A stretch of 64,000 nucleotides of DNA from Candidatus Avimonas faecium (GTDB taxonomy: Bacteria > Bacillota > Clostridia > Oscillospirales > Acutalibacteraceae). The notes below the pieces were generated by a model. It made no database searches. It worked only from the letters and a program-made list of their open reading frames with translations, and was not told the origin of the DNA. Of the stretch, positions 11,361 through 58,592 are shown piece after piece. Each line of letters opens with the position of its first letter. The stretch's first letter is position 1. Location: the NCBI GenBank assembly GCA_904419005.1, contig CAJFQI010000004.1, positions 783-64,782 of the forward strand, given 5' to 3'. Made by a program: the position numbers and the translations under genes.

Positions 11361-12291
11361 CAGCGGGAAGGGGATTGCCCCGCGCGAAAAAATGGAGGCC
11401 GGCCGCCAGGAGGCCCGGCTGACCGACATCGGTACGGTCAAGGCCCTGCTGGCACGGCACGGCTTCCATTTTTCCAAAAAGCTCGGCCAAAATTTCCTGG
11501 TCAACCCGTCAGTCTGCCCGCGCATGGCGCAGGCCTGCGGGGCGGATGAACATACCGGCGTGCTTGAGATCGGCCCGGGGATCGGCGTGCTGACGCAGGA
11601 GCTCGCCCGCCGCGCCGCCCGTGTAACGGCGGTGGAGCTCGACAGCCGCCTGCTGCCGGTGCTGGAGGAAACCCTGTCGGCGTATCCCAACGCCCGCGTC
11701 CTACAGGGGGATGCGATGGAGCTGGACCTTAACCGGGTGATCGCCGAAGACTTCGCCGGCCTGCGGGCCGTGGTCTGCGCCAACCTGCCCTATTACATCA
11801 CGTCCCCGATCCTGATGCGCCTGCTGGAAAGCCGCCTGCCGGTTGACGGCATTACCGTCATGGTGCAGAAGGAGGCGGCGCAGCGGCTCTGCGCCCGGCC
11901 GGGGACAAGGGAATGCGGCGCGGTAACCTTTGCCGTCTGGTATTATGCGGAGCCGGAGCTTCTGTTCCCGGTTTCCCGCGGGAGCTTCCTGCCTGCGCCG
12001 CATGTCGACAGCGCGGTGATCCGGCTGAAGGTGCGAAAAGAGCCGCCGGTGTATGTGCGGGACGAGGCGCTGCTCTTCCGCCTGGTGAGGGCGGGCTTCC
12101 GCCAGCGGAGGAAAACCCTGGTCAATGCGCTGAGCGGCGCCGGCATCGCCAAAGGGGAGGCGGCGGCGCTCCTGCGGCAGGCCGGGATTCCGGAAACGGC
12201 CCGGGCCGAGGAGCTGACCTTGGAAATGTTCGCCGCCTTAGGGAACGCGGCGGCCGGCTGTTTTAGGGATGGGACGCCCCTTGACAGATGA
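11353..12291 (+). CDS. rsmA: 16S rRNA (adenine1518/1519-N6)-dimethyltransferase
   Basis: Trimmed from the 381-aa track ORF. The ATG overlaps the cdd stop (ATGAATAA). KKLGQNFL and the SAM motif LEIGPGIGVLT are present. An alternative start is ATG 11392. Confidence 0.92.
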   Translation: MNNSGKGIAPREKMEAGRQEARLTDIGTVKALLARHGFHFSKKLGQNFLVNPSVCPRMAQACGADEHTGVLEIGPGIGVLTQELARRAARVTAVELDSRLLPVLEETLSAYPNARVLQGDAMELDLNRVIAEDFAGLRAVVCANLPYYITSPILMRLLESRLPVDGITVMVQKEAAQRLCARPGTRECGAVTFAVWYYAEPELLFPVSRGSFLPAPHVDSAVIRLKVRKEPPVYVRDEALLFRLVRAGFRQRRKTLVNALSGAGIAKGEAAALLRQAGIPETARAEELTLEMFAALGNAAAGCFRDGTPLDR

Positions 12292-12377
12292 AAAACAAAA
12301 TGCCATAATAGCTTTCACAAACTTCGGTAAGTTTATGAAGCTATTGTGGCATTCCTCGTCACAGCATCCGGTGTCTT

Positions 12378-12569
12378 TCAGCGTTTTTCCTGCTTATACG
12401 GCGATTCCCTGGTATAGGGGATCTGGTTTTCCGTCAGGTATTTCTCAATAGCCGTGTCCAAAATGCGGGAGAGAGGGATGCCGCTTTGGAGAGAGTAGTT
12501 ATAAACGGCGTTGTAGAGGCCCTTGTCAACAGAGGAAGATAGCCGGGCGCGGTATTTCAGTTCGTTCAT
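12378..12569 (-). CDS. ribbon-helix-helix (CopG/MetJ-like) small DNA-binding protein
   Basis: Trimmed to ATG 12569 behind GAAAGGA, giving 63 aa: MNELKYRARLSSSVDKGLYNAVYNYSLQSGIPLSRILDTAIEKYL. This reads as a beta-strand plus two helices. The family call is from pattern only. Confidence 0.5.
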   Translation of the reverse strand: MNELKYRARLSSSVDKGLYNAVYNYSLQSGIPLSRILDTAIEKYLTENQIPYTRESPYKQEKR

Positions 12570-13140
12570 TGTTGCACCAATCCTTTCATAACTGTGTCGG
12601 GGCGGCGGATTTGTCGGGCAGACAAAGGGCATCATTCCCTTGAATTGGCTTTGGAATCCAATTGTTTTCACAGTTATATGTACTCTCCACATAATTAGTA
12701 TACCCTTTTTCCGGCCGAACTTCTATTCCCATAAGTTTCATAAACACCCATACACTTCATCAGCGGGGCCGGCTGGGGCCGGAAGCGGTCCCCTGCTCGG
12801 CAGAATGCTTCGGCTGCTTTTGGGGGAGCCGCTGCCGCCTGCCTCTTTCCCGCGGGCGGCTTTGGGGCCCGCCGCAGGAGCAGCGGCTTTCGGGCTTGCC
12901 GGGGGATCTGGGAGCGCTACAAAGCGATGGGGGGGCGGTATCCCCTAAAGAAATGGCTCGCAGGAGGGGCCGTGTTTTCTTCCTTTCCGGCGCGAAGCCG
13001 CATTCCCCGGCTTATGGCCGGCGGGTCCTGTGCTGGAAAAGGCGGTTGGGCGCGCCCTTGCGCCGGGGAGCAGCGCGCTGTTTTAAGCGGTCGCAAACGG
13101 CACGCTTTCCCGGCTGCAGTGAGAAAGGAATGGTCATCGT

Positions 13141-13392
13141 ATGAAAGGAAAACGGGATATTCCGTCGTATATTGGGCAGAATCTCACCTACTATCGTCAG
13201 AAAAACGGCTATACGCAGGAAACGCTTTGCCAGATCCTGGGCTTGACCCGTTCCACCTATGCGTATTATGAAACCGGCCGGACGCTCCCGACCGTTATGT
13301 TTTTAAAGAAGCTGGCAAAATTTTACCGGATTACATTGGATGAGCTGACCGATGAAACGCTGGTTCCTAAGAAGAAATGGAACACGCTGTGA
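13141..13392 (+). CDS. XRE-family helix-turn-helix transcriptional regulator
   Basis: 83 aa. IGQNLTYYRQKNGYTQETLCQILGLTRSTYAYYETGRTLPTVMFLKKLAKFYRITLDEL is the classic Cro/CI HTH_3 layout. GAAAGGA SD lies upstream. Confidence 0.85.
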   Translation: MKGKRDIPSYIGQNLTYYRQKNGYTQETLCQILGLTRSTYAYYETGRTLPTVMFLKKLAKFYRITLDELTDETLVPKKKWNTL

Positions 13393-13430
13393 CGCGGCGG
13401 GACAAAAGGGAGACACTTCATAAGGAAACA

Positions 13431-13467
13431 AAGGGACATTGCCGCAAATAGGCAGTGTCCCTTTTGT
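13431..13467. terminator. bidirectional terminator between the XRE and radical-SAM genes
   Basis: 13-bp stem aagggacattgcc / ggcagtgtccctt with one G-U pair. T-rich runs follow on both strands. Confidence 0.7.
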
Positions 13468-13484
13468 ATGAAAGCAATTTTTAT

Positions 13485-14522
13485 TCATTTTCTGCAATAT
13501 TTATTTAGCAGATATTCTATATAATCGCCTTTACTGAATAATCTTTGGCTTTTACTATCGCCTTGTGCTTGAACGATGTCACAAAGAGGAACGGATAGGC
13601 GCGTGTGCTGTGCAGCGCTTTTGTTTTCGGTATAGTTCTCTATTATAGTTTCTACTCTGTCCGTTTTTAAATTTCCCAAAAGCCAAGCTGTTTCAGGCGG
13701 AGCCACATTCGGATAAACATTAAACTCTTTATCTATGTAGAAAGTGGGAGTTGCACTTACATAACTTGCTGTCGAATTATCATTTATCAGTTCTTTGTAG
13801 AGTACCTGTTCTGTTCTCCCAAAAACATCTTCTATATTCGCTTTGTTAAAATGCTTTAATGTATACTCTACAAGCGTTTGTGGGATTTTCTGCAAATCTT
13901 CGGGCGTTACTCTGATTGCATACAGTTTTTCGTTTTCTCCGTCACAAGAACCTTGATGCAAAAAAAATGAGAATTCTCCGCCAAAAGATTGGCATCGGTT
14001 TTCTAAATCTAAGCTTTTTATGAGATGTTCAACAAACAGAAGCTCATCAATATTATCTTTGTTAACAAAAACTTGTATGCGGGGGGAAATTCTACTTTCA
14101 AGTAATATTTCAATGGCTTCCAATATTTCGTTGTATGCATTTTTTCTGCCTGTATAATAATCCGTTTTTTCCTGACCTCCGAACAGAGTAAGCTGGGCCT
14201 TTTTTAAACCGAGTGAAGAAAGCCATTTAACGTATTCTTTGTCGCGAACTATACGCCAAATGCTGATAAGCTCAAAATGTTTTTCATGCGTATCGGATAG
14301 ACTATTGCATAGATCCCAAAGCTCTTTGTAATTATCGTTATAATCTGGTTCCCGATACCAGTCATAAACTGTTAAGCAGTTTGTAAATGGACGAAACTTT
14401 TCCGCAAGAAATCTTAAATCATCATTCGTCAAATTTCCGTTTGGAGAGTGTCCAATCCAACAATGCTTACAACGATTTGGACAACCAAACATGTCAAGAC
14501 ATACCGTTATGCTTGTGAACAT
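13485..14522 (-). CDS. radical SAM enzyme, unassigned subfamily (foreign, low GC)
   Basis: 345 aa. CPNRCKHC (CX3CX2C) lies at residues 14-21. No SPASM or twitch Cys cluster is visible at the C-terminus. A strong SD (TAAGGAGGG) is present. Sampled 60-nt lines count 30-33% G+C. Confidence 0.8.
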   Translation of the reverse strand: MFTSITVCLDMFGCPNRCKHCWIGHSPNGNLTNDDLRFLAEKFRPFTNCLTVYDWYREPDYNDNYKELWDLCNSLSDTHEKHFELISIWRIVRDKEYVKWLSSLGLKKAQLTLFGGQEKTDYYTGRKNAYNEILEAIEILLESRISPRIQVFVNKDNIDELLFVEHLIKSLDLENRCQSFGGEFSFFLHQGSCDGENEKLYAIRVTPEDLQKIPQTLVEYTLKHFNKANIEDVFGRTEQVLYKELINDNSTASYVSATPTFYIDKEFNVYPNVAPPETAWLLGNLKTDRVETIIENYTENKSAAQHTRLSVPLCDIVQAQGDSKSQRLFSKGDYIEYLLNKYCRK

Positions 14523-14571
14523 CTTTTTATCCCTCCTTACAATCTGAAATCAAGTTCCCCTGAAACGAGAA

Positions 14572-14605
14572 ATAGTTAAGATTAAGGATTTTGGCGTCAA
14601 AATCC
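14572..14605 (-). promoter_or_regulatory. putative promoter of the radical SAM gene with overlapping palindromic operator
   Basis: Minus strand: TTGACG (14595-14600), 17 nt, AACTAT (14572-14577, a weak -10). The perfect palindrome GGATTTTG-gcgt-CAAAATCC (14586-14605) covers the -35. Confidence 0.45.
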
Positions 14606-14852
14606 GATGCTCGCTAAACAGATAGATAAAATTTGGGGCACCTTCCTTACGGAGAGTGCCTCAAGGCGGACAACCCTTTGTCCCTTCTTTTTTGCATTGG
14701 CACAGCAGCATTCCGCTGCCGTGGGGGATCCGCTTCCAGTCAGGGAAACAGCCTGGAAAAGACGATCCCCGCCCGGGGTAACGCCTTGCGTGACAGCCTA
14801 TCCGTGGCCCGTGCCCTGCCCCGCCGGAGGGCGGGGAATCGCAGCGAGGGCC

Positions 14853-16085
14853 TCAAAACACCAGGGCACCGTACCGGGCGGCAATATCCTCCAAGAGCGG
14901 GCGTTCAATCTCGCATAAGGAATCCACCAGCAGCCGGCCGGGGAAGCGGCGGAGCGCCTCGTCCAGCAGGAGGGCCTCGTCGGCGTGCAGCAGGATGGGC
15001 AGGCGGCTCATCCCGCCGTAGTCCAGCAGGTTGTCGATATCCCCCGGCTGGCTCAGCTCTACCAGGGCGGCGTTGCCCTCCTCCTCCGCCTCAATCAGCC
15101 GGTCGGCCAGATCGCTGTCGCAGGGGATGGGGGCGCCGTATTCCAAATCGTCCGAAAGGAAAAGCGCCTCGCTCTCCACCGCGCAGGCGTCGGTGTCGAT
15201 TTCCCGCGGGGCCACCGTGGGATGCTCGTCCGCAATCCCCCGCAGCACGGCAAGGTGCTCCGGCGTGGCGGCGGGGCCTCCGCCGATCACGGCCGCCCCG
15301 GCGTCAAGCAGGGGGGCCATCGCCCGCCCGAATTGCAGGGGGGACAGGGGGCCGCCGTCTTTTGCCACCGTATTTGGCCGGACTGCCAGGGGCACCGAGG
15401 CATGAGGCAGCGCCTCGCTCAGCGGCTCCTGCATCCCGGCCGGGCCGCAGGGGCCGTCCAAGCCCACAGCCGCCGCGCCAAGCGCCTGCAGCGTAATCAC
15501 TGCCGGGAGGAAATGGGCGCCGGAGGGCGCCTCCCCCTCGTCGTTGGCCTCTAGGGAAACGAGGACCGGCAGGCCGGTCCGGCGGGCAGCCAGCAGCGCG
15601 GCACGCGCCTCGCTTAAGCTGGTCATCGCTTCGCAGGCCAGCAGGTCGACGCCGGCCTCCTTCAGCGCGGCGGCCTGCTCGGAAAAAATGTCCACCCACT
15701 GATCAAACGGCGCTTCGGAGGGGGATTCCCCCCGCAGGCCAGTGGGGGAGAGTGCGCCCGCGATCCAGCAGCGGCTTTTCGGCACGGCGCCGGCCGCTTC
15801 CCGCGTTAGGGAAACCAGCCGCCGGTTCAGCTCCTGCACCTGGCCGGCCAGGCCGTACGCGGCCAGCCGCGTGCGGCTGGCGCCGGCGGTAGGGGCATAC
15901 AGCACGCTGCATCCCGCCAGGATATAGCGGCGCTGGAGCTCCAGCACCGCCTGCGGGTGTTCCAGCGCCCACCGCTCCGGGCAGGCGCCGGCCGGCATCC
16001 CCGCCGCTCCGGTCAGCGGCAGGCCGGCCGCCCCGCCCAGGAGCAGGGGCAGCCTACAGGGAAGTTCCATGAAGCGAAAACCCAT
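14853..16085 (-). CDS. homocysteine S-methyltransferase-domain protein (zinc-site motif degenerate) with C-terminal extension
   Basis: 410 aa with the Pfam S-methyl_trans-like N-terminus (PERWALEHPQAVLELQRRYILAGCSVLYAPT). Where MetH/BHMT have GGCCGTTPEH it reads IGGGPAATPEHL. It lies 32 nt downstream of argS. Confidence 0.65.
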   Translation of the reverse strand: MGFRFMELPCRLPLLLGGAAGLPLTGAAGMPAGACPERWALEHPQAVLELQRRYILAGCSVLYAPTAGASRTRLAAYGLAGQVQELNRRLVSLTREAAGAVPKSRCWIAGALSPTGLRGESPSEAPFDQWVDIFSEQAAALKEAGVDLLACEAMTSLSEARAALLAARRTGLPVLVSLEANDEGEAPSGAHFLPAVITLQALGAAAVGLDGPCGPAGMQEPLSEALPHASVPLAVRPNTVAKDGGPLSPLQFGRAMAPLLDAGAAVIGGGPAATPEHLAVLRGIADEHPTVAPREIDTDACAVESEALFLSDDLEYGAPIPCDSDLADRLIEAEEEGNAALVELSQPGDIDNLLDYGGMSRLPILLHADEALLLDEALRRFPGRLLVDSLCEIERPLLEDIAARYGALVF

Positions 16086-16117
16086 CCTTTCTGCCGCCGG
16101 AAGGGCGGCTAACGGCG

Positions 16118-17809
16118 TTACATTGATTCAGGCGCGTCGATTTTCAGCAGGGCCAGGGCGTTTTCAAGCGTGACCCGCGTCGCGGCGCAGAGCGAAAGCC
16201 GCGCCTGCATCAGGGGCTCCTCCTCCCCCTTGACCCGGCAGGTGTTATAAAACTTGTGGAAGAGGGTGGCGAGCTCCAGGCAGTACCGGGTGATCCGGGC
16301 CGGCTCGTAGGCCTTGGCTGCCGCCACGATCTCGCCGGTGTAGTCCGCCAGATGCCGGATCAGCGCCTTTTCCTCCGGGGAGGTCAGCCGGGCGAGTTCC
16401 GCCTTGCCGCACGCGCGGGGGGCGATCCCCTCGGCGGCGAGGTTTTTGAAGATCGAACAGATGCGCGCGTGGGCGTACTGCACATAATACACAGGGTTTG
16501 AGGAGGACTGCTCCACCGCCAGGTCGAGGTCGAAATCCATCTGTGTGCTGGCCTCCCGCATATTAAAGAAGAAGCGGGCGGCGTCGACCGGCACCTCGTC
16601 GAGCAGGTCGGAAAGCTGGATGGCCTTGCCGGAGCGCTTGGACATCCGGACGACCTCGCCCCCCTGCATCAGCCGGACGAGCTGGATGAGCACGACGTGC
16701 AGCTTGCTGCCGTCCAGGCCGATGGCGTCCATCGCGCCCTTCATCCGGGCGACGTGGCCGTGATGGTCGGCGCCCCACACATCAATGCAGGTATCAAACC
16801 CGCGCTCAAATTTGTTGCGGTGGTAAGCGATGTCCGCCGCGAAATAGGTGGGGTTGCCGTTGGCGCGGATCAGCACCTCGTCCTTTTCGCCGCCGTTTTC
16901 GCTGGCCTTGTACCAGACGGCGCCGTCCTTTTCGTAGGTCAGCCCCTTTGCCGTCAGCAGATCAACCACGGCCTTTACTGCCCCGCTCTTGTGCAGGGAG
17001 GATTCAAGGAACCATTCGTCGTAGACGATCCGGTATTTTTCCAAATCCCGGTGCATCCGCTCAATGTTGAGGGGCAGGGCGTAGGCGACCAGGGCCGCCC
17101 GCCGCTCCTCGGCCGGGGCGCTGAGGTATTTATCCCCGTAAAGGGCGGCAAAATTGGCCGCGTGCTCCCGGATGTCGTCGCCGTGATAGGCGTCCTCCGG
17201 GAATTCCACCGCGTCCTCCCCCTTGAAGTGCTGGATATACCGCGCTTCAAGGGAGATGCCGAATTTTTCAATCTGGTTGCCCGCGTCGTTGACGTAGAAT
17301 TCCCGCCATACCTGGTAGCCGGCGGCGTCCAGCACCGAGGCCAGGCAGTCGCCCAGCGCGCCGCCCCGCGCGTTGCCCATATGCATCGGGCCGGTCGGGT
17401 TGGCCGAAACAAATTCCACCATCACCCGCTTGCCCTTCCCGAAATCGGAGCGGCCGTAGCGCTCCCCCTGCGCAAGCACGTCCGCCACCACGGCGGCGTA
17501 AAACGCGGGGGAGAGGAAGAAATTCAAAAAGCCGGGGCCGGCGGTCTCCGCCCGCTCAAAATAGGTGCCGTCCAACGCGAGATGGGAGAGGATGCACTCC
17601 GCGATCTTGCGCGGGGGGAGGCGGAACGCCTTGGCGGAAACCATCGCCGCGTTGGCGGAAAAATCGCCGTGCGCCCGGTCCCCCGGGACCTCAACGGCAA
17701 AGGCGGGGATCGGCTCGGCGGGCAGCTCCCCGGCCGCGACGGCTTCCCCCAAAGCGGAAAGCACGGCTTGCCTTAGCTGCTCTTCCGCCGTTTCTACGAT
17801 TTTTGACAT
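16118..17809 (-). CDS. argS: arginine--tRNA ligase
   Basis: 563 aa. It has class I motifs (SANPTGPMHMGNARG as the HIGH region, MSKRSGK as KMSKS) and an N-terminal Arg-tRNA-binding domain. Confidence 0.97.
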   Translation of the reverse strand: MSKIVETAEEQLRQAVLSALGEAVAAGELPAEPIPAFAVEVPGDRAHGDFSANAAMVSAKAFRLPPRKIAECILSHLALDGTYFERAETAGPGFLNFFLSPAFYAAVVADVLAQGERYGRSDFGKGKRVMVEFVSANPTGPMHMGNARGGALGDCLASVLDAAGYQVWREFYVNDAGNQIEKFGISLEARYIQHFKGEDAVEFPEDAYHGDDIREHAANFAALYGDKYLSAPAEERRAALVAYALPLNIERMHRDLEKYRIVYDEWFLESSLHKSGAVKAVVDLLTAKGLTYEKDGAVWYKASENGGEKDEVLIRANGNPTYFAADIAYHRNKFERGFDTCIDVWGADHHGHVARMKGAMDAIGLDGSKLHVVLIQLVRLMQGGEVVRMSKRSGKAIQLSDLLDEVPVDAARFFFNMREASTQMDFDLDLAVEQSSSNPVYYVQYAHARICSIFKNLAAEGIAPRACGKAELARLTSPEEKALIRHLADYTGEIVAAAKAYEPARITRYCLELATLFHKFYNTCRVKGEEEPLMQARLSLCAATRVTLENALALLKIDAPESM

Positions 17810-17905
17810 GGGAATCCACCTTTCTCTATAGGCGCGCCCGTCCCACGGGCCCGCCGTTTTCCTTTTCCCGGCGGCTTGTCCGCCGCCGCATACCAGTTTC
17901 CTTTT

Positions 17906-18343
17906 TCATTGGGGAGGCGCTTCCCGCACCGTGACGTAGATATCGTGGGAGGAAGCGATCCCCGCGTTGATATCCAGGGTGTAGTGGAAATCGAGCGTCC
18001 CGCCCTGGTCGGCCAGGCCGATGTGGATGGCGCGGGCGTAAACCCCCATCGTCAGGCAGCCGTAGCCGGTATCGTAATTGCATAGCGTGCGCTTGCCCTT
18101 CTGCAGCACCAGCAGGGAGTTCATGGCGCCCTGCCGCTCAAGCGTCACCAGGTCCGGCTGGACCGACAGGCAGGTCGTGACCCCTTCCATCCCGATCGAC
18201 ACGCTTTCGTCGTAGGTCAGCCGGAAGCCGCGATCGGTGCGCTCCATTATGCCCGTCGTATTCAGTTCGACCGTGTCGCTTTCCCCGTCCAAATGCTGGA
18301 TCCCCTTGATCGAAATCCAAACCGGCTTCCCGTTTTCCGGCAT
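17906..18343 (-). CDS. DUF1934 domain protein
   Basis: Trimmed to ATG 18343, giving 145 aa. It has the position directly upstream of argS and the beta-rich sequence typical of DUF1934 in Firmicutes (recollection of synteny). Confidence 0.6.
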   Translation of the reverse strand: MPENGKPVWISIKGIQHLDGESDTVELNTTGIMERTDRGFRLTYDESVSIGMEGVTTCLSVQPDLVTLERQGAMNSLLVLQKGKRTLCNYDTGYGCLTMGVYARAIHIGLADQGGTLDFHYTLDINAGIASSHDIYVTVREAPPQ

Positions 18344-18434
18344 GACGCCGCCTTCCCTTCTTTGCCCTTTTCCGTCCGGCGCTTCCTGCGCGGGCTCCCT
18401 AACGCCGCGGGGTGAACCGCAGCGGGCTCCGCCT

Positions 18435-19265
18435 TCATCGTCGCTCGGGGCAGTCCACCTGTTCAATATCGAGCGTATGCACCTCGCCGGTGATTTCGCA
18501 GCCCAGGAACATGGACGCCACCTTGGTAAAATCCTGCGGCCGGTCGGTTACATAAAAATGCAGCTGCCCGCCCTGCGCTTTGCCGCTGAGGGCGCCCTCC
18601 TGCCGGAGCCGCCGCTCGCAGTCGGCGGCCGCCGTTTCCCCTGCGTCAATCAGCGCGACGTTTCCGCCCATGATGTCCCCAATGATCGGGGCGAGCAGGG
18701 GGTAGTGGGTGCAGCCCAGAATCAGGGTGTCCACCCCCGCTTCCCGCAGCGGCGCCAGATACCGCCGGGCGGTCAGGATCGTCACCTCGTCGTTTCGGTC
18801 AATCCAGCCGTTTTCGACCAGCGGGACAAACAGGGGGCAGGCCTGCGGGAAGACGGCGGCCTCCGGCATCTGCTGCCCAATCCGCCGCTGGTAGGCGCCG
18901 GAATGGATGGTGGCCTGGGTGCCGAGCACGCCGATCCGCTTGCTGCGGGTGGCGCGCACCGCCGCATCCGCCGCCTGCTCCACTACGCCGGAGGCGCGTA
19001 CCGGCAGGCGGTCCAGCACCTGCGGCACCACCGAGCTGACCGTGCCGCAGGCGGCGATGATCCGCTTGACGTTTTTGCCGAGCAGGAAACGGCAGTCCTG
19101 CCGCGCATATTTTTCCAGGGTCTCCCGGCTCCGGTTCCCATAAGGGACCCGGCCGGTGTCGCCGAAGTATACGATATCTTCGCCGGGGAGGCGGCGCATC
19201 AGCTGACGTACCACGGTCAGCCCTCCAAGCCCGGAGTCGAATACGCCGATTGGCCGGTTGTCCAT
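18435..19265 (-). CDS. murI: glutamate racemase
   Basis: Trimmed from the 506-aa track ORF to ATG 19265 (MDNRPIGVFDSGLGGLTV). The catalytic Cys motifs AACGT and LGCTHYP are present. Confidence 0.93.
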   Translation of the reverse strand: MDNRPIGVFDSGLGGLTVVRQLMRRLPGEDIVYFGDTGRVPYGNRSRETLEKYARQDCRFLLGKNVKRIIAACGTVSSVVPQVLDRLPVRASGVVEQAADAAVRATRSKRIGVLGTQATIHSGAYQRRIGQQMPEAAVFPQACPLFVPLVENGWIDRNDEVTILTARRYLAPLREAGVDTLILGCTHYPLLAPIIGDIMGGNVALIDAGETAAADCERRLRQEGALSGKAQGGQLHFYVTDRPQDFTKVASMFLGCEITGEVHTLDIEQVDCPERR

Positions 19266-19604
19266 ACAGTGTTTGCCCCTTTTCTCTTTGCTTGCCCGCC
19301 CTTTCCGTAAAAGCGGGACGTGGCCGCCGGTCCCCGGCGCACGGGGAACCCTCAAGCCCGCCGCGGGCGCGGAATGGACGGCCCGCATCCTATGCCTATG
19401 CGGCCTGGCCGGGGAATATGTCCGGATGGGGAGCCCCCCGCCGGCCTGCCTGCGTTTCAAGGCTTTGCCGATCCCGATATCCGCGGGCGGCTGTGCGCCG
19501 CGGCACCGGCCTCCGCCCGCTTCCGGAGGAAACCGGGGAGCGGGCAGCCGGCAACAGGCTGGGATGAACCGGGGAGGCCGGAGCGGATGAAGGAAGTTCC
19601 TATT

Positions 19605-19633
19605 ATCATACCATACCCGCGCCGAGATGGCAA
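19605..19633 (-). promoter_or_regulatory. sigma-A-type promoter about 330 nt upstream of murI
   Basis: Minus strand: TTGCCA (19628-19633), 17 nt, TATGAT (19605-19610) with an upstream TG. Confidence 0.4.
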
Positions 19634-19781
19634 CGGTTTTGCGGGCAAAGCTGGGGCAAATCCAGCGGAAAAGGGGAGTGCCCTTGCGCCCGTCCCCCGG
19701 AAGCAGCCGGCATCTGGGCGACGGAAAGGGAAACAGGGGCGATCCTGCGGTAGGGAGGGGCTGTCGGCGCAATAACACAAG

Positions 19782-19810
19782 GAGATAACATATAAAGAGA
19801 TAACATATAA
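19782..19810. repeat. tandem 14-mer (2 copies, 15-nt period) in an AT-rich islet
   Basis: gagataacatataa occurs at 19782-19795 and again at 19797-19810. It sits in an otherwise GC-rich non-coding region of about 960 nt. Confidence 0.9.
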
Positions 19811-20011
19811 TGTAATAAAAAGAATGGCAAAGGATGGCGGCCCTGCCCAATCCATCCGGAAGGAGCACGCCGCCCAGGGGGCGCTGCCCTTCCCAGCCGT
19901 AACCGGAAGGATTATGCGGGCCTGCCGCAGGCGAATCGGCTGAAACGGCATCCAAACGGCACCCGCCGGATCAAAGAGGGAAATTTTTTTCCCCGCCCGC
20001 CTTGGGACCCC

Positions 20012-20040
20012 TTGACCCTGGACAAGAACTGTGCTATAGT
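20012..20040 (+). promoter_or_regulatory. sigma-A-type promoter of rpmG-secE-nusG
   Basis: TTGACC (20012-20017), 17 nt, TGcTATAGT extended -10 (20035-20040). This leaves a leader of about 180 nt before rpmG. Confidence 0.55.
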
Positions 20041-20224
20041 AGATAGTACCTCATTGGGGGCTTTTATTTTTGTGCCCATTTTTCGGCGGCCGCGTCCTGT
20101 TTTGCCGCCCGGAAAGGGCCGGTACGCCCCCGGCGCGAGGGAGGCCAGGGCTTGTATGGCCGCCCGGCGTCCGCCGGCTTGCCGACAAAGCCCTAGAAAA
20201 TCCGAAATTATTGGAGGTGCCGTT

Positions 20225-20374
20225 ATGAGAGTGAAGATCACCCTGGCCTGCACGGAGTGCAAACAGCGCAACTACAACACCATGAAGAACAAGAAGAACG
20301 ACCCTGACAGACTGGAGATGAACAAGTACTGCCGGTTCTGCCGCAAGCACACGCTTCATCGCGAGACGAAGTAA
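20225..20374 (+). CDS. rpmG: 50S ribosomal protein L33
   Basis: 49 aa after trimming: [49 protein letters not shown], with CxxC...CxxC zinc knuckles. GGAGGTG SD lies upstream. Confidence 0.95.
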
Positions 20375-20464
20375 GGCCGCGCCGTCGGGGCGATGGCTCC
20401 GCTTTGCAGGAATGCCGTTTGTTGGGACGCCGGCCGTCCCCGGCAACGAAAGGAAGGGTCCGTA

Positions 20465-20752
20465 ATGGCTGACGAGAAAAAGCTCTCCGCCGTGGAGGAA
20501 ACCGGCGGCAAGGCCGCCAAGGCGGAAAAAGATGCGAAGCCCGCCAAGGAAAAGAAACCCGGATTCGGCAAGAAGGTCGCAAAGTATTTCCGCGACTCCA
20601 AAGGCGAGTTCAAAAAGATTATTTGGCCGACCCTGCCGTCGGTCGTGCGCAACACCGGCGTGACGCTGGCGATGTGCGCGGTCCTCGGCGTGCTGATCTG
20701 CGTGTTCGACCTGGGCCTGTCAAAATTGATTGACCTGCTGGTGTCGCTGTAA
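20465..20752 (+). CDS. secE: preprotein translocase subunit SecE
   Basis: 95 aa after trimming. It has a Lys-rich N-terminus, then FKKIIWPT and a single TM. Its position between rpmG and nusG is conserved. Confidence 0.9.
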   Translation: MADEKKLSAVEETGGKAAKAEKDAKPAKEKKPGFGKKVAKYFRDSKGEFKKIIWPTLPSVVRNTGVTLAMCAVLGVLICVFDLGLSKLIDLLVSL

Positions 20753-20785
20753 TCCTCTGCCGGCACAGGGAAGGAGGATTCACCG

Positions 20786-21307
20786 ATGACGGAAGAAGCG
20801 AAATGGTATGTGGTGCATACCTATTCCGGCTATGAAAACAAGGTAGCCACCAATCTGGAAACGATTGTCGAAAACCGCAAGCTCCAGGACTGGATCAAGG
20901 AGATCCGCGTCCCCACCGAAACCGTCGTGGAGATCAAGGACAACAAAAAGCGCGAGGTCGAGAGGAAGATTTTCCCCGGCTATGTGCTGGTCAAGATGGT
21001 CATGACCGACGAGTCGTGGTATGTCGTGCGCAATACGCGCGGCTGCACCGGCTTTGTGGGGCCCAACGGCAAGCCGGTCCCCCTGACGGAGGAGGAAGTC
21101 GCCGCCCTGGGCGTGGAGAAGCGGGAGGTCGAGGTCAATTACAAGGTGGGCGATACCGTCCATATCGTTGACGGCCCGCTGGAGAACTTCTCCGGCGTGG
21201 TGGAGGAAATTGACCTTGAGAAAAACAAAGTCCGCGTTACCATCTCCATGTTCGGCCGCGAGACGCCGGTGGAACTGGAGCTGGACCAGGCGGAGCTGAT
21301 GGAGTAA
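20786..21307 (+). CDS. nusG: transcription termination/antitermination factor NusG
   Basis: 173 aa with WYVVHTYSGYENKV, FPGYVLVKM and a KOW motif (VGDTVHIVDGPLENFSGVV). Confidence 0.97.
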   Translation: MTEEAKWYVVHTYSGYENKVATNLETIVENRKLQDWIKEIRVPTETVVEIKDNKKREVERKIFPGYVLVKMVMTDESWYVVRNTRGCTGFVGPNGKPVPLTEEEVAALGVEKREVEVNYKVGDTVHIVDGPLENFSGVVEEIDLEKNKVRVTISMFGRETPVELELDQAELME

Positions 21308-22784: not shown

Positions 22785-22813
22785 TTGACAATTGTCAGCC
22801 CTTGCGGTAAAAT
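22785..22813 (+). promoter_or_regulatory. sigma-A-type promoter of rplJL
   Basis: TTGACA (22785-22790), 17 nt, TAAAAT (22808-22813). The -35 lies inside the near-palindrome gggcttgacaattgtcagccc. Confidence 0.55.
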
Positions 22814-22937
22814 ATTCAACGCTGTTCTTCCGCAGACAGCAGGTATCGGTTTCCCGATGTAAAGGCTTATGCCGCCTGCCGAGGACGAGGGCCTGGTTCC
22901 TTCCGCGCGGTGCGGAGGGAGGATAGTGTCTATGAGT

Positions 22938-22972
22938 CTTCCTGCGGTTTTCGGCCGCAGGAAGATTTTTTG
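22938..22972 (+). terminator. attenuator hairpin of the L10 (rplJ) leader
   Basis: Stem cttcctgcgg / ccgcaggaag followed by aTTTTTTg, about 50 nt before the rplJ start. This matches the transcription-attenuation L10 leader known in Firmicutes (Rfam L10_leader). Confidence 0.6.
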
Positions 22973-23019
22973 TTCCGGAGAAAGACAGCGTGATTTTTAT
23001 TCCGGAGGTGAATTCTACA

Positions 23020-56604: not shown

Positions 56605-57243
56605 CTACGCGCCCTTGCAGAGCTCGACCGCGACATCCGCGGCCGACGCCGCGTCGGCGGTATAGCGGTCCGCGCCGATCTGCTTGCAGAACGCCTCGGT
56701 CACCGGGGCGCCGCCCACCATGATCTTGACCTTGTCGCGGATGCCGGCCTTTTCGGCGGCCTCGACCACGTCCTTCATGACCGACATGGTGGTGGTCAGC
56801 AGCGCGGAGCAGGCGATGATCTGGCAGTTTTCGTTGATCGCGGTCTCCACATACTTCTCGGGCGATACATCGGTGCCGAGGTCGACAACCTCAATGCCCT
56901 TGCCTTCCATCATCATCTTGACCAGGTTTTTGCCGATGTCGTGCATGTCGCCCTTGACGGTGCCAAGGCAGACCTTGCCGACCGCCTCGTTGCCGCCCTC
57001 GGCGAGCAGGGGCTTCAGCAGCGCGGCGCCCATATTCATGGCGCGGGCGGCTACCAGCACCTCCGGCACGAAGACCTCGTTGTTCTTAAATTTTTCGCCG
57101 ATGACGCTCATGCCGCTGAGCAGGCCCTCGTCCAGGATCTGCTTGGCGGGCAGCCCTTCGTCAATGGCCTGCTGCACCAGTTCCTTGACGACCTTTGCCT
57201 TGCCCTTCTGCAGGTTTTCGCTGATGTCGTTCAGAATGCTCAT
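56605..57243 (-). CDS. cobalamin-binding corrinoid protein (methyltransferase-system type)
   Basis: 212 aa with a B12-binding cap domain and a Rossmann domain. DxHxxG appears as GDMHDIGKN, followed by SALLTTTM. Confidence 0.88.
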   Translation of the reverse strand: MSILNDISENLQKGKAKVVKELVQQAIDEGLPAKQILDEGLLSGMSVIGEKFKNNEVFVPEVLVAARAMNMGAALLKPLLAEGGNEAVGKVCLGTVKGDMHDIGKNLVKMMMEGKGIEVVDLGTDVSPEKYVETAINENCQIIACSALLTTTMSVMKDVVEAAEKAGIRDKVKIMVGGAPVTEAFCKQIGADRYTADAASAADVAVELCKGA

Positions 57244-58592
57244 TTTCCCAACCCTTTCCCACTTATTGGTTTGATTCTGCCTTTGGATTCTTTAAATTTA
57301 CACGGCGCGACGCCGGTCAATTTCTTGAAAACCTTGGTAAAATAGCTTTGATCCTCAAACCCGACGGCGTAGGCGATATCGACCAGCCGCAGGCTGCTGT
57401 TCAGCAGCAGCTCCTTGCTCTTCTCAATCCGCACGGTGTTCAGGTAGGTGTTGAAATTGCATCCCATCTCCTGCTTAAACACCTTGCTGAAATAGGAGGA
57501 GGACAGGTAAACGGAGGAGGCGACCTCCTCCAGGGAAATCTTTTTCGCATAGTTTTTCCGCACATACTGCACGGTCTTGTGGATCACGTCGACATGCTTG
57601 ACGTCGGCAAAGCGGAAGGCGCTGTCGGTAAAATTGTTGAGCGCGTCGGTCAGCCAGAAGCAGAGGTCCTCAATGGTGTCAATGGCGGTGATCTGCTTTA
57701 AATAACGGCGGCTCTGCTCAAAGGCGTAGTCGGGGTCGGCGCCCCCGTCAATCGAAGCGCGGGAAATCAGCACCAGCAGCTCATACACCCGCGCCTTGAT
57801 TTTATCGACGTTCCCGCCCGAAGCGAAGAATATATGGCCAAGCAGCTCGTTGAGGAGCTGCTGCGCCGTCGCCTTGTCCGATTCGGCGATGCTTTGGAGA
57901 AGGGCGTGCTCCTTTTCAAGCGGGTACCGGGGCGGGGCGTGCGGGTCCTCAAGCTTGAGCTGGGAGATGTAGTCGCTGATCTGCCCCTGGATGGCGTCCG
58001 CACCCTGGGTTTCCAGCATCCGGTTGCCCGCGGCGACGTTGTTTAAAAAACCCACCGCCATAAACAGCAGGGAGGACAGGTGGGTAACCCGTTCGGGATC
58101 AACATAGGGAAAGCGGTCCAGCATCTCGGAAGCGAGCCGGATCTGCTCCTCGTCCAGCTTGGCGGTTTCCCGCAGGTCAACGTTGATGTAATCGTCCCGG
58201 TCGACCATCAGGAAGGGGCCGGCCGTCACCTTGGCGAGCCCGGCCTCTTCCCCCATGATGGGGGAGACGAAGCAGGCCAGCCCCATCGGGCAGAAGTAGA
58301 TGTACTTCCCGCCGAACCGTTCCGCCTGCCGCATCCCGTACTGGTGGGCGTCCCGGCAGGCCGCCTTGGCGTCCGGGGTGCCCTTGGCAACGGAGCACAG
58401 CATACAGGAAGCGCAGCCGTACCCGATTTCGTGCAGGACGTTGCCCTGCAGGTCGGATACCGTGCAGGCAAGGCCGGTGGAGCCGGCAAAGGCGTTGGCG
58501 CATTCCACCGCCAGCTTTAGATTGAATTGCGCGATCGCGGCAATGGACCCAGTGTCTGCGGCGTTTTCGCCGGGGGAGGCATAGGCGGGCAT
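57240..58592 (-). CDS. PocR sensor domain + AraC-family HTH transcriptional regulator
   Basis: 450 aa. The N-terminus is Cys-rich and PocR-like (GYGCASCMLC...YIYFCPMGLACFVSP). The C-terminus has a double HTH (YLSSSYFSKVFKQEMG...IAYAVGFEDQSYFTKVFKK). ATGA overlaps the corrinoid protein gene. Confidence 0.8.
   Translation of the reverse strand: MPAYASPGENAADTGSIAAIAQFNLKLAVECANAFAGSTGLACTVSDLQGNVLHEIGYGCASCMLCSVAKGTPDAKAACRDAHQYGMRQAERFGGKYIYFCPMGLACFVSPIMGEEAGLAKVTAGPFLMVDRDDYINVDLRETAKLDEEQIRLASEMLDRFPYVDPERVTHLSSLLFMAVGFLNNVAAGNRMLETQGADAIQGQISDYISQLKLEDPHAPPRYPLEKEHALLQSIAESDKATAQQLLNELLGHIFFASGGNVDKIKARVYELLVLISRASIDGGADPDYAFEQSRRYLKQITAIDTIEDLCFWLTDALNNFTDSAFRFADVKHVDVIHKTVQYVRKNYAKKISLEEVASSVYLSSSYFSKVFKQEMGCNFNTYLNTVRIEKSKELLLNSSLRLVDIAYAVGFEDQSYFTKVFKKLTGVAPCKFKESKGRIKPISGKGLGK

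Follow-up and report, generated by a model that had tools for sequence, protein, structure and literature searches.

A recently imported low-GC radical-SAM gene unit in Candidatus Avimonas faecium, probably a mobile cassette with defined ends

Known single-gene modules and the radical-SAM unit

Phage morons are said to be independent genes, bounded by a terminator and a promoter of their own and lying between phage genes; the description reportedly goes back to Juhala and Hendrix in 2000. Here we describe a unit which recalls them in a chromosomal setting, a 1,259-bp segment with one radical S-adenosylmethionine (radical-SAM, rSAM) gene, located at 13406-14664 on the minus strand of a 64,000-nucleotide stretch of Candidatus Avimonas faecium DNA (hereafter the window; contig CAJFQI010000004.1 of assembly GCA_904419005.1). 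We argue, with a probability of roughly 0.7, that this self-contained unit is a recently imported, non-autonomous mobile cassette with defined ends, inserted at the terminator of a resident XRE-family gene. Similar to a moron, it is a single gene of deviant composition with its own (putative) promoter and terminators, placed exactly between two resident genes and acquired by an obscure route; unlike a moron, it lies between chromosomal housekeeping genes and not in a prophage, it has no match in INPHARED, and it recurs with the same ends in many genomes. The other close parallel is the mobile insertion cassette (MIC), a concept treated in PMC5444012; the original papers on MIC231 (Chen et al. 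1999; De Palmenaer et al. 2004) are cited in PMC2266710, whose Table 1 gives, for the IS231 subgroup, ends that start with CAT and direct repeats of 10-12 bp. Like the MICs (MIC231 of the Bacillus cereus group and the qnrS2 MIC of Aeromonas plasmids), the rSAM unit is short, non-autonomous and bounded by defined ends, which may be inverted-repeat-like; it carries a single passenger open reading frame (ORF) which is unrelated to transposition, has no transposase, and is found with the same termini at multiple unrelated loci. However, MICs carry the ends of a known insertion sequence (IS) and a fixed target duplication, whereas the ends of the rSAM unit do not start with CAT, resemble terminal inverted repeats (TIRs) only weakly, have inconsistent flank repeats and belong to no known cognate IS. 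A target duplication of fixed length was not found in the window copy or in two further copies, L008 and L107, described below.

The mean G+C content of the window is ~0.633-0.634 (300-nt windows, standard deviation 0.063). At 13250-14700 the profile falls to 0.35-0.42 between flanks of 0.60-0.74; this trough is the sole run below 0.45 in the 64 kb and holds the window-wide minimum of 0.353, ~4.4 standard deviations under the mean. The strong low-GC contrast reported by a first-pass annotation of the DNA is therefore real, and gene calls and Pfam bear out the three genes in three orientations which it listed here (RHH on the minus, XRE on the plus and radical SAM on the minus strand). It had, however, read the whole of 12292-14720 as one foreign islet whose low-GC DNA begins directly at the rsmA stop codon, and this does not hold, as 12292-13140 has a G+C of 0.49-0.67 (0.59 in the RHH-XRE spacer, 12570-13140) and the stretch is conserved at its locus in sister species. 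The most deviant DNA is the rSAM gene with its short flanks (GC 0.37, third-position GC (GC3) 0.32; for the gene by itself 0.368 and 0.315). The core neighbours PBP5, cdd, rsmA, the homocysteine S-methyltransferase-family gene (SMT) and argS show GC of 0.63-0.71 and GC3 of 0.77-0.85, with RHH (0.50 and 0.66) and XRE (0.47 and 0.60) being intermediate.

The age of the different parts of this region was read from sister-species loci, located by an RsmA scan of one genome per species and mapped with the window proteins by tblastn. In the window, rsmA (11392-12291, plus strand) is followed by the 63-aa Arc-like RHH gene (12378-12569, minus strand; Pfam RHH_3, PHROG Arc-like repressor), the XRE-family HTH gene (13141-13392, plus strand; Pfam HTH_3, E = 1.8e-15), the rSAM unit, SMT (14853-16085, minus strand) and argS (16118-17809, minus strand). 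The order is PBP5-cdd-rsmA-RHH-XRE-SMT-argS in Candidatus Avimonas merdigallinarum (Clostridia; L016) and cdd-rsmA-XRE-SMT-argS in L017, and tblastn found no rSAM gene at the cdd-argS locus of either of these two nearest species. Between XRE and SMT lie 313 nt in L016, 138 nt in L017 and as many as 1,460 nt in the window. Identity to the window proteins in L016 is 82% for RsmA and 79% for RHH, and in L016 and L017, respectively, it is 76% and 70% for XRE, 75% and 73% for SMT and 90% and 88% for ArgS; RHH (79%) and XRE (70-76%) have accordingly diverged to a degree which resembles that of the flanking core genes (73-90%). The region after rsmA is moderately AT-rich in L016 and L017 too (0.40-0.55), and in relatives beyond these two (RsmA ≤71%) the synteny is lost. 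Because RHH and XRE are kept at the same locus in sister species, with core-like divergence and without the rSAM gene, we take them to be ancestral and outside the insertion. We conclude with high confidence that RHH, XRE and the control region after rsmA are an old feature common to the lineage, that the rSAM segment alone is new, and that ~13406-14664 represents a recent single-gene import of ~1.26 kb from a low-GC source. The recent transfer proposed by the first-pass annotation therefore stands for this segment and fails for RHH, XRE and the DNA after rsmA. Likewise, its idea that related genomes might show an unoccupied site was borne out in so far as L016 and L017 have the site without rSAM; rsmA does not directly precede the argS operon in them, as XRE, with or without RHH, lies between.

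The limits of the unit follow from the reproducible ending of homology to other copies at both positions (blastn) together with its absence from L016 and L017, and are accurate to about ±3 nt. On the rSAM strand the order of parts is T1, T2, a ribosome-binding site, the 345-aa ORF, a bidirectional T3 and a 24-nt tail. T1 (14662-14635, minus strand) is a terminator-like hairpin at the very 5' end, GAGGCACuCUCC-GUAA-GGAaGGUGCCCC, followed by AAAUUUUAU; its folding energy is -16.8 kcal/mol (z = -3.0), nothing else in the window matches the 28-nt consensus, which T1 fits with 2 mismatches (0 matches expected by chance), and it is kept at the 5' end of the copies L008, L103, L107, L108 and L158. 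It probably insulates the cassette from read-through. After a spacer of ~20 nt comes the block GCGAGCAUCGG with the T2 hairpin GGATTTTGacgcCAAAATCC (also given as GGAUUUUGacgcCAAAAUCC; 14605-14586, minus strand, the part as a whole spanning 14605-14572), terminator-like by scan and conserved as a block in L008, L103, L107 and L152. T2 overlaps TTGACG-17-AACTAT, with the -35 element at 14600-14595 and the -10 element at 14577-14572; this is the putative promoter of the cassette, which T2 would then carry, and some cassette copies have an extra TGnTAtAAT nearer to the gene. The ribosome-binding site AAGGAGGG (14538-14531, minus strand; read from the sequence) stands 8 nt 5' of the ATG of the rSAM ORF (14522-13485, minus strand; PF04055, E = 7.5e-12, CX3CX2C at C14/C18/C21). 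Behind the ORF lies T3 (13464-13430), inverted repeat I7, whose 14-nt arms AAAGGGACATTGCC and GGCAGTGTCCCTTT are 93% complementary, with T-runs on both strands and a fold z of -4.3 on each; it is conserved in L008, L103, L104, L107, L152 and L155. The tail (13429-13406, minus strand) ends in TTTGTTTCCTTAtGAAGTGTCTCCCTT (full form UUUGUUUCCUUAuGAAGUGUCUCCCUU), where homology to other copies stops. Its reverse complement resembles the 5' end of the unit, for instance GGGGCACCCTCCGTAAGGAA against GGGAGACACTTCGTAAGGAA from the reverse-complemented 3' end; the match is imperfect, and such end-to-end similarity was reached by ≤4 of 1000 shuffles in the window, L008 and L107. An Rfam search at E ≤ 1 over 12200-14900 matched neither the cassette leader nor the GC-rich spacer to a known RNA or riboswitch. 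The 5' block was also considered as a precursor-peptide ORF or regulatory leader and rejected, since no ATG-initiated ORF was read in the 142-nt leader and Rfam gave no match.

The low-coordinate end of the unit lies 13 nt past the XRE stop codon. Host DNA beginning 4 nt past that codon carries the left flank repeat GGCGGGACAA (13396-13405, plus strand), and the right flank repeat GGCGGACAA (14665-14673, plus strand) overlaps a host hairpin. A flanking direct repeat, which the first-pass annotation could not see, does exist as an imperfect repeat of 9-10 nt, GGCGG(G)ACAA, at 13396-13405 and 14665-14673; the exact 6-nt core TTGTCC was reached in 78 of 2000 shuffles. In addition, GGGACAAAAGG (13399-13409) is complementary to CCCTTTGTCCC (14674-14684), forming the split inverted repeat I22. 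The host hairpin GGACAA-ccct-TTGTCC, followed by CTTCTTTTTT, occupies 14668-14693 on the plus strand, that is, the XRE strand, with a terminator-like site at 14668-14683, and L016 and L017 have a hairpin and T-run in their shorter spacers 3' of XRE. Since a terminator-like site adjoins the far end of the unit and such hairpins exist in L016 and L017, the insertion is placed between XRE and its own intrinsic terminator, or into the terminator hairpin; we infer that 14668-14693 is the original XRE terminator, whose hairpin and T-run would have been moved by 1.26 kb. T3 would now terminate both convergent genes, rSAM and XRE.

Copies in other contexts and the HTH177 cargo

More than 600 homologues of the rSAM protein are present in a large protein collection, and its close homologues, at 79-94% amino acid identity, occur in unrelated contexts. 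Copies of the family follow carB (L004), the his operon (L012) and rpsT (L155), precede lexA (L159), adjoin cobO and the S10 ribosomal operon (L103) and fall within the lar cluster (L104); in L008-L011 the contig also carries DnaN, SSB, MoxR-AAA and VWA genes and a HEPN/NTase pair. The window segment was compared by blastn with these loci and another 47 metagenome loci. Homology on the 5' side stops at 14663-14666 in L008, L103, L107, L108 and L143/L158, and on the 3' side at 13403-13407 in L008, L104, L107 and L152/L153, so that the same ends recur in at least five unrelated contexts in gut Clostridia. RHH or the XRE of the window never accompany the rSAM copies elsewhere. An internally deleted remnant of the cassette lies in a high-GC context at 2880-3170 of L152 (also in L153), with T2, promoter, ribosome-binding site and the first 25 codons fused straight to T3 and the tail.

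The closest copy, L107 (92% nucleotide identity), sits at the exact centre of a perfect palindrome of 28-30 nt, and none of 2000 shuffles equalled its 15-nt inverted flanks; its insertion point reads as the apex of a bidirectional, terminator-like hairpin of the host. The L008 copy (84% identical) lies on a 40-kb contig with a GC of ~0.42, found in many samples (23 contigs read), and this type of contig may be a plasmid- or phage-like vehicle. The same contig also encodes DUF3846 and DUF4160/DUF2442 proteins. The young clade of copies keeps a GC of 0.33-0.41 in hosts whose flanks range from 0.43 to 0.65, and this constant low GC across hosts shows that a low-GC lineage of the gene spread recently. 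Homologues at ≤73% identity mostly track host GC (gene 0.28-0.70, flanks 0.24-0.68); L012, L114 and L139, at 0.07-0.15 below their flanks, and L125, above them, are exceptions. As to the phage or plasmid source which the first-pass annotation had envisaged, neither INPHARED nor PLSDB matched the rSAM protein or the cassette DNA and IMG/VR has no relative of the protein; one copy, 84% identical, lies on a replicon-like contig. Scans of IMG/VR for the end motifs found nothing for T2 or the T3 tail and one exact 28-nt T1 match at an unrelated locus. This match, on the viral contig UViG_3300045988_120441 (L154, 4318-4362), stands inside a longer intergenic hairpin GCCGCCC...GGGCGGC, an intergenic terminator with no rSAM or HTH177 gene (see below) nearby. 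Five other IMG/VR 17-mer matches lie in coding DNA and were dismissed as chance.

Furthermore, a second gene was found between hairpins of the same kind. A protein search with SMT led to a 98%-identical protein on the sister-strain contigs L160 and L161, which are ~95% identical in nucleotides to 14798-21138 of the window and end just inside the variable region. In L160, a hairpin related to T1, AGAGGCCgaUUCC-GUAA-GGAAGGUGCCUCU, followed by a U-run, stands 3' of SMT; after it comes a low-GC gene for a 177-aa HTH_3 protein (HTH177; L160 6395-7190), then GCGAGCATCGGATTTTTACCCCAAAATCC, which is the T2 block, and the contig ends 4 nt past T2. A 90%-identical HTH gene was seen in L162/L163 as a solo insertion between an S41 peptidase gene and degV (L162 5830-6600), bounded by a T1-type hairpin with inverted loop and by the T2 block; its GC in L162 is 0.43, against 0.54 for the locus. 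Homologues of HTH177 number more than 900, and 50 contigs carry the exact protein. Judged from sequence, the 5' block of the rSAM cassette looks like an emptied HTH177 cassette (T1 plus T2) joined to promoter-rSAM-T3, and the sister strains appear to hold a different cargo behind the same hairpin type at the site downstream of SMT. A functional link between HTH proteins and the rSAM family is also hinted at by P0129, a natural HTH_3-rSAM fusion with an N-terminal XRE-type HTH_3 domain, and by L147, where an HTH177 homologue lies directly upstream of a distant rSAM homologue.

These features also invite comparison with integron cassettes, in which an ORF is joined to an attC hairpin. The rSAM unit is likewise a single-ORF module delimited by imperfect hairpins, the modules look combinable (T1-HTH177-T2 as against T1-T2-rSAM-T3), and sister strains carry different cargo at the same site. 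In contrast to integron cassettes, there is no intI, attI or Pc, the unit has its own putative promoter, and the insertion sites are scattered. No integrase was present among the called genes at the window locus and the other loci inspected, and no attC consensus GTTRRRY was evident on reading the hairpins, no dedicated attC search having been made. A classical genomic island would have an adjacent integrase or recombinase and a tRNA or tmRNA site with att repeats, and neither is present. The first-pass annotation was right that no integrase, transposase or tRNA accounts for the acquisition: a tRNA/tmRNA search of the window found none, and among the called genes within ~6 kb of the insertion (SecE, L33, racemase, DUF1934, ArgS, SMT, rSAM, XRE, RHH, RsmA, Cdd, PBP5, Metallophos, HD and UDG) there is neither integrase nor transposase. 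By analogy, the rSAM unit seems to resemble a MIC or a phage moron most closely; it is not a classical island, and nothing suggests an integron cassette.

How the unit may move

We propose that the unit, a cassette with defined ends, is mobile yet non-autonomous and would be moved by an enzyme encoded elsewhere; this enzyme would favour intrinsic-terminator hairpins as targets, and the cassette would pass between genomes on plasmid- or phage-like vehicles. Our confidence in this mechanism of cassette mobility is moderate, and a number of observations weigh against it. No recombinase is encoded by the unit or in any locus inspected, and no autonomous partner was found. The flank signatures differ among the three copies with both ends intact: besides the imperfect repeat of the window, L008 has a perfect 10-nt repeat displaced 13 nt from the 3' end, and L107 has no direct repeat. 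These inconsistent flanks rule out a target duplication of fixed length, and classical DDE transposition with such a duplication is therefore unsupported. The TIR-like similarity is modest and is confounded by the palindromic, hairpin-forming nature of the 5' end itself. Only ~6 independent insertions carry the conserved 5' end, all of one young clade, and the distant copies L155, L159, L004 and L012 have no conserved flanks, having lost them or never had them; the sharp ends could come partly from shared ancestry of one segment and not from repeated precise excision. No empty site was recovered within the species, as 13 of 13 contigs which encode the identical XRE protein match the window at 100% identity, and the nearest empty sites are in species ~75-90% identical in protein, whose intergenic DNA is too diverged for a base-precise reconstruction. 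A promoter scan gave no strong sigma-70 promoter in the window copy, the putative one being below threshold. The rSAM protein, for its part, matched nothing in PADLOC or PHROGs and fell far below the family cut-offs of the NCBIfam ACGX, NirJ, AhbC, SkfB and StsB models.

Two readings would deny that a defined 1.26-kb unit was imported at all. The sequence comes from a metagenome-assembled genome (MAG) and several short contigs break in or near the region, as might be expected if a low-GC fragment of another organism had been fused to a high-GC genome in a chimeric contig. But the contig DWVC01000086.1 of the MAG GCA_019120435.1 is identical to the window, both junctions are spanned with 100% identity by NCBI (L001), Logan (L002) and ENA (L003) contigs from different assemblers, archives and samples, and the cassette recurs in many other chromosomal settings; this agreement across samples and archives makes a chimeric assembly very unlikely, and we give it hardly any weight. 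The other reading, in which the whole of 12292-14720 (RHH, GC-rich spacer, XRE and rSAM) arrived as one recent 2.4-kb import, could appeal to the GC (0.47-0.50) and GC3 (0.60-0.66) of RHH and XRE, which are below those of core genes, and to the fact that both are regulator types common on mobile elements. It is highly improbable, since RHH, XRE and the promoter region stand at the same locus in L016 and XRE also in L017, with core-like divergence and without rSAM in either, and since rSAM copies elsewhere come without them.

Two further readings accept the import and differ on how it came about. In a moron-like uptake no machinery would be needed: a promoter-gene-terminator module would have entered through recombination, illegitimate or microhomology-mediated, at terminator hairpins, which as targets are palindromic, T-rich and prone to replication stalling, and the sharp ends would be the edges of an ancestral module. 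Terminator-like hairpins do bound the unit on both sides, the sites adjoin or fall within host terminators in the window and L107, the host flank motifs GGGACAA / TTGTCCC resemble the T3 arms of the cassette, the flank signatures are heterogeneous as expected without a single enzyme, and no recombinase was found. Independent illegitimate events should, however, differ in their end points, yet at least five contexts agree within 3-4 nt, and a second cargo gene, HTH177, has the same kind of boundary hairpins; we regard this route as possible and lean against it. Rather improbable is a single-strand element of the IS200/IS605 type (PATE-like), with subterminal hairpins and a Y1 HUH transposase acting in trans, which would insert 3' of a short target, CCTT, without inverted repeats or target duplication. 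For such an element speak the hairpins which lie near both ends on the same strand and whose stem bases are similar (GGGGCAC / GGGACAC), the 5' flank, which ends in CCTT, ACTT or GGTT in 5 of 6 insertions, the element 3' end CCCTT, the want of a consistent duplication, and the exact rebuilding of the L107 empty site when the insertion is placed 3' of CCTT. But the 5' hairpin abuts the boundary (0-4 nt) and is not set back by a guide segment, a geometry atypical of these elements; CCTT may simply belong to the element, neither TnpA nor TnpB turned up in any locus, and the window and L008 do have flanking direct repeats. A bolder extension of the defined-end cassette reading, which we hold to be doubtful, is that T1, T2 and T3 are recombination sites of an undescribed cassette system of gut Clostridia, in which low-GC single genes (rSAM, the 177-aa HTH gene and possibly others) would be combined, emptied and exchanged, and a structure-specific enzyme acting in trans would insert them at the apex of host terminators. 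Such a hairpin-cassette system would follow an integron-like logic without the integron platform, a parallel which is likewise tentative and on balance unlikely.

The radical-SAM protein, neighbouring features and implications

The only Pfam family on the rSAM protein is PF04055, and C14-x3-C18-x2-C21 is invariant, as in members of the radical SAM superfamily (full-length numbering; the numbering of the cysteine alignment is lower by 1). The family is small: of 1.8 billion representatives, 340 clusters at 50% identity reach E ≤ 1e-3. The 90% cluster to which the rSAM protein belongs has 110 members. An AF2 model (pLDDT 87.6, pTM 0.85) gave as best Foldseek matches anSME, SkfB, BlsE, EpeE, ChlB and CteB, with E = 7e-9 to 3e-6 and TM ~0.40-0.51, viperin structures ranking 24th or lower; a profile search against PDB sequences found SkfB, and there were weak profile matches to SkfB, NirJ and AhbC models. 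Similar to the SPASM/twitch enzymes (anSME, SkfB, CteB, EpeE, BlsE), the protein has an N-terminal CX3CX2C core and a C-terminal SPASM-like beta-hairpin/helix domain; unlike them it lacks the C-terminal cysteine motif of the auxiliary clusters, and its cassette brings neither a precursor peptide nor a partner gene. The sequence of the SPASM-like beta-hairpin is VYPN...LGNLK, with VYPN in place of VYPC, and C14, C18 and C21 are the only cysteines conserved family-wide; on these grounds the modelled SPASM-like domain probably holds no auxiliary Fe-S clusters. With neither a second ORF nor a precursor peptide in the cassette, the substrate should be generally available, and since the gene spreads alone, the enzyme probably needs no dedicated partner and acts on a substrate that is ubiquitous. 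We would hazard a guess, and a weak one, at a stand-alone protective or modifying activity. PADLOC gave no match to the curated defence models of known anti-phage radical-SAM effectors such as the prokaryotic viperins.

Some further observations concern distant members of the family. In six distant rSAM loci, one pair of them near-identical (L133, L146, L147, L128, L119/L117 and L150; rSAM identity 34-66%), a GNAT acetyltransferase gene lies immediately 3' on the same strand, and these GNATs are not orthologous to one another. P0127 is a fusion of the rSAM family with an N-terminal extension of ~200 aa which has no Pfam match; an initial guess from its sequence that the extension is ParB-like was dropped, as Pfam gave it no support.

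In the resident part of the locus, 12281-12432 (plus strand) holds a near-consensus promoter, TTGACA-17-CATAAT, with a TG before it, directly after the rsmA stop codon, then a hairpin (12299-12314 / 12338-12353) and a terminator-like site (12403-12423). This stretch is nearly identical between the window and L016, though the coding genes there are only ~80% identical, and a transcript from it would be antisense to the RHH gene at its 3' end; the stretch may encode an antisense or small RNA. No Rfam family matched the putative small RNA, and its folding is not above shuffles (z = -0.56). Within the RHH-XRE spacer, a GC-rich stretch of ~200 nt (~12745-12960) is absent from L016 and L017; it includes three imperfect 24-nt direct repeats (12813-12906), whose core occurs nowhere else in the window, and several metagenome contigs begin at 12790, which may mark an assembly break point. 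Farther away, at 56605-58592 (minus strand), there is a mild GC dip to 0.56, far shallower than the 13-15 kb trough; judged from the translations alone, it encodes a protein of the corrinoid-binding type and a regulator of 450 aa whose C-terminus is AraC-like. The ribosomal protein L10 leader (RF00557, 48.4 bits) at 22812-22979 (plus strand) is the sole Rfam family found in the window at gathering threshold.

For annotation, the lesson of this locus is that an apparent islet can consist of an old regulatory locus, common to the lineage, and a single recent insertion, here of 1.26 kb. If the reading as a cassette with defined ends is true, the insertion swaps the terminator of a resident gene for the cassette's own, and the case illustrates a way in which accessory genes pass singly between uncultured gut Clostridia; this way would escape island-finding tools, since the cassette comes without an integrase, a transposase or a tRNA site. 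The uncharacterised rSAM family and the widespread HTH177 are targets for functional study and, since both genes appear to move solo, candidates for adaptive roles that are self-sufficient, for instance in resistance, defence or the modification of xenobiotics.

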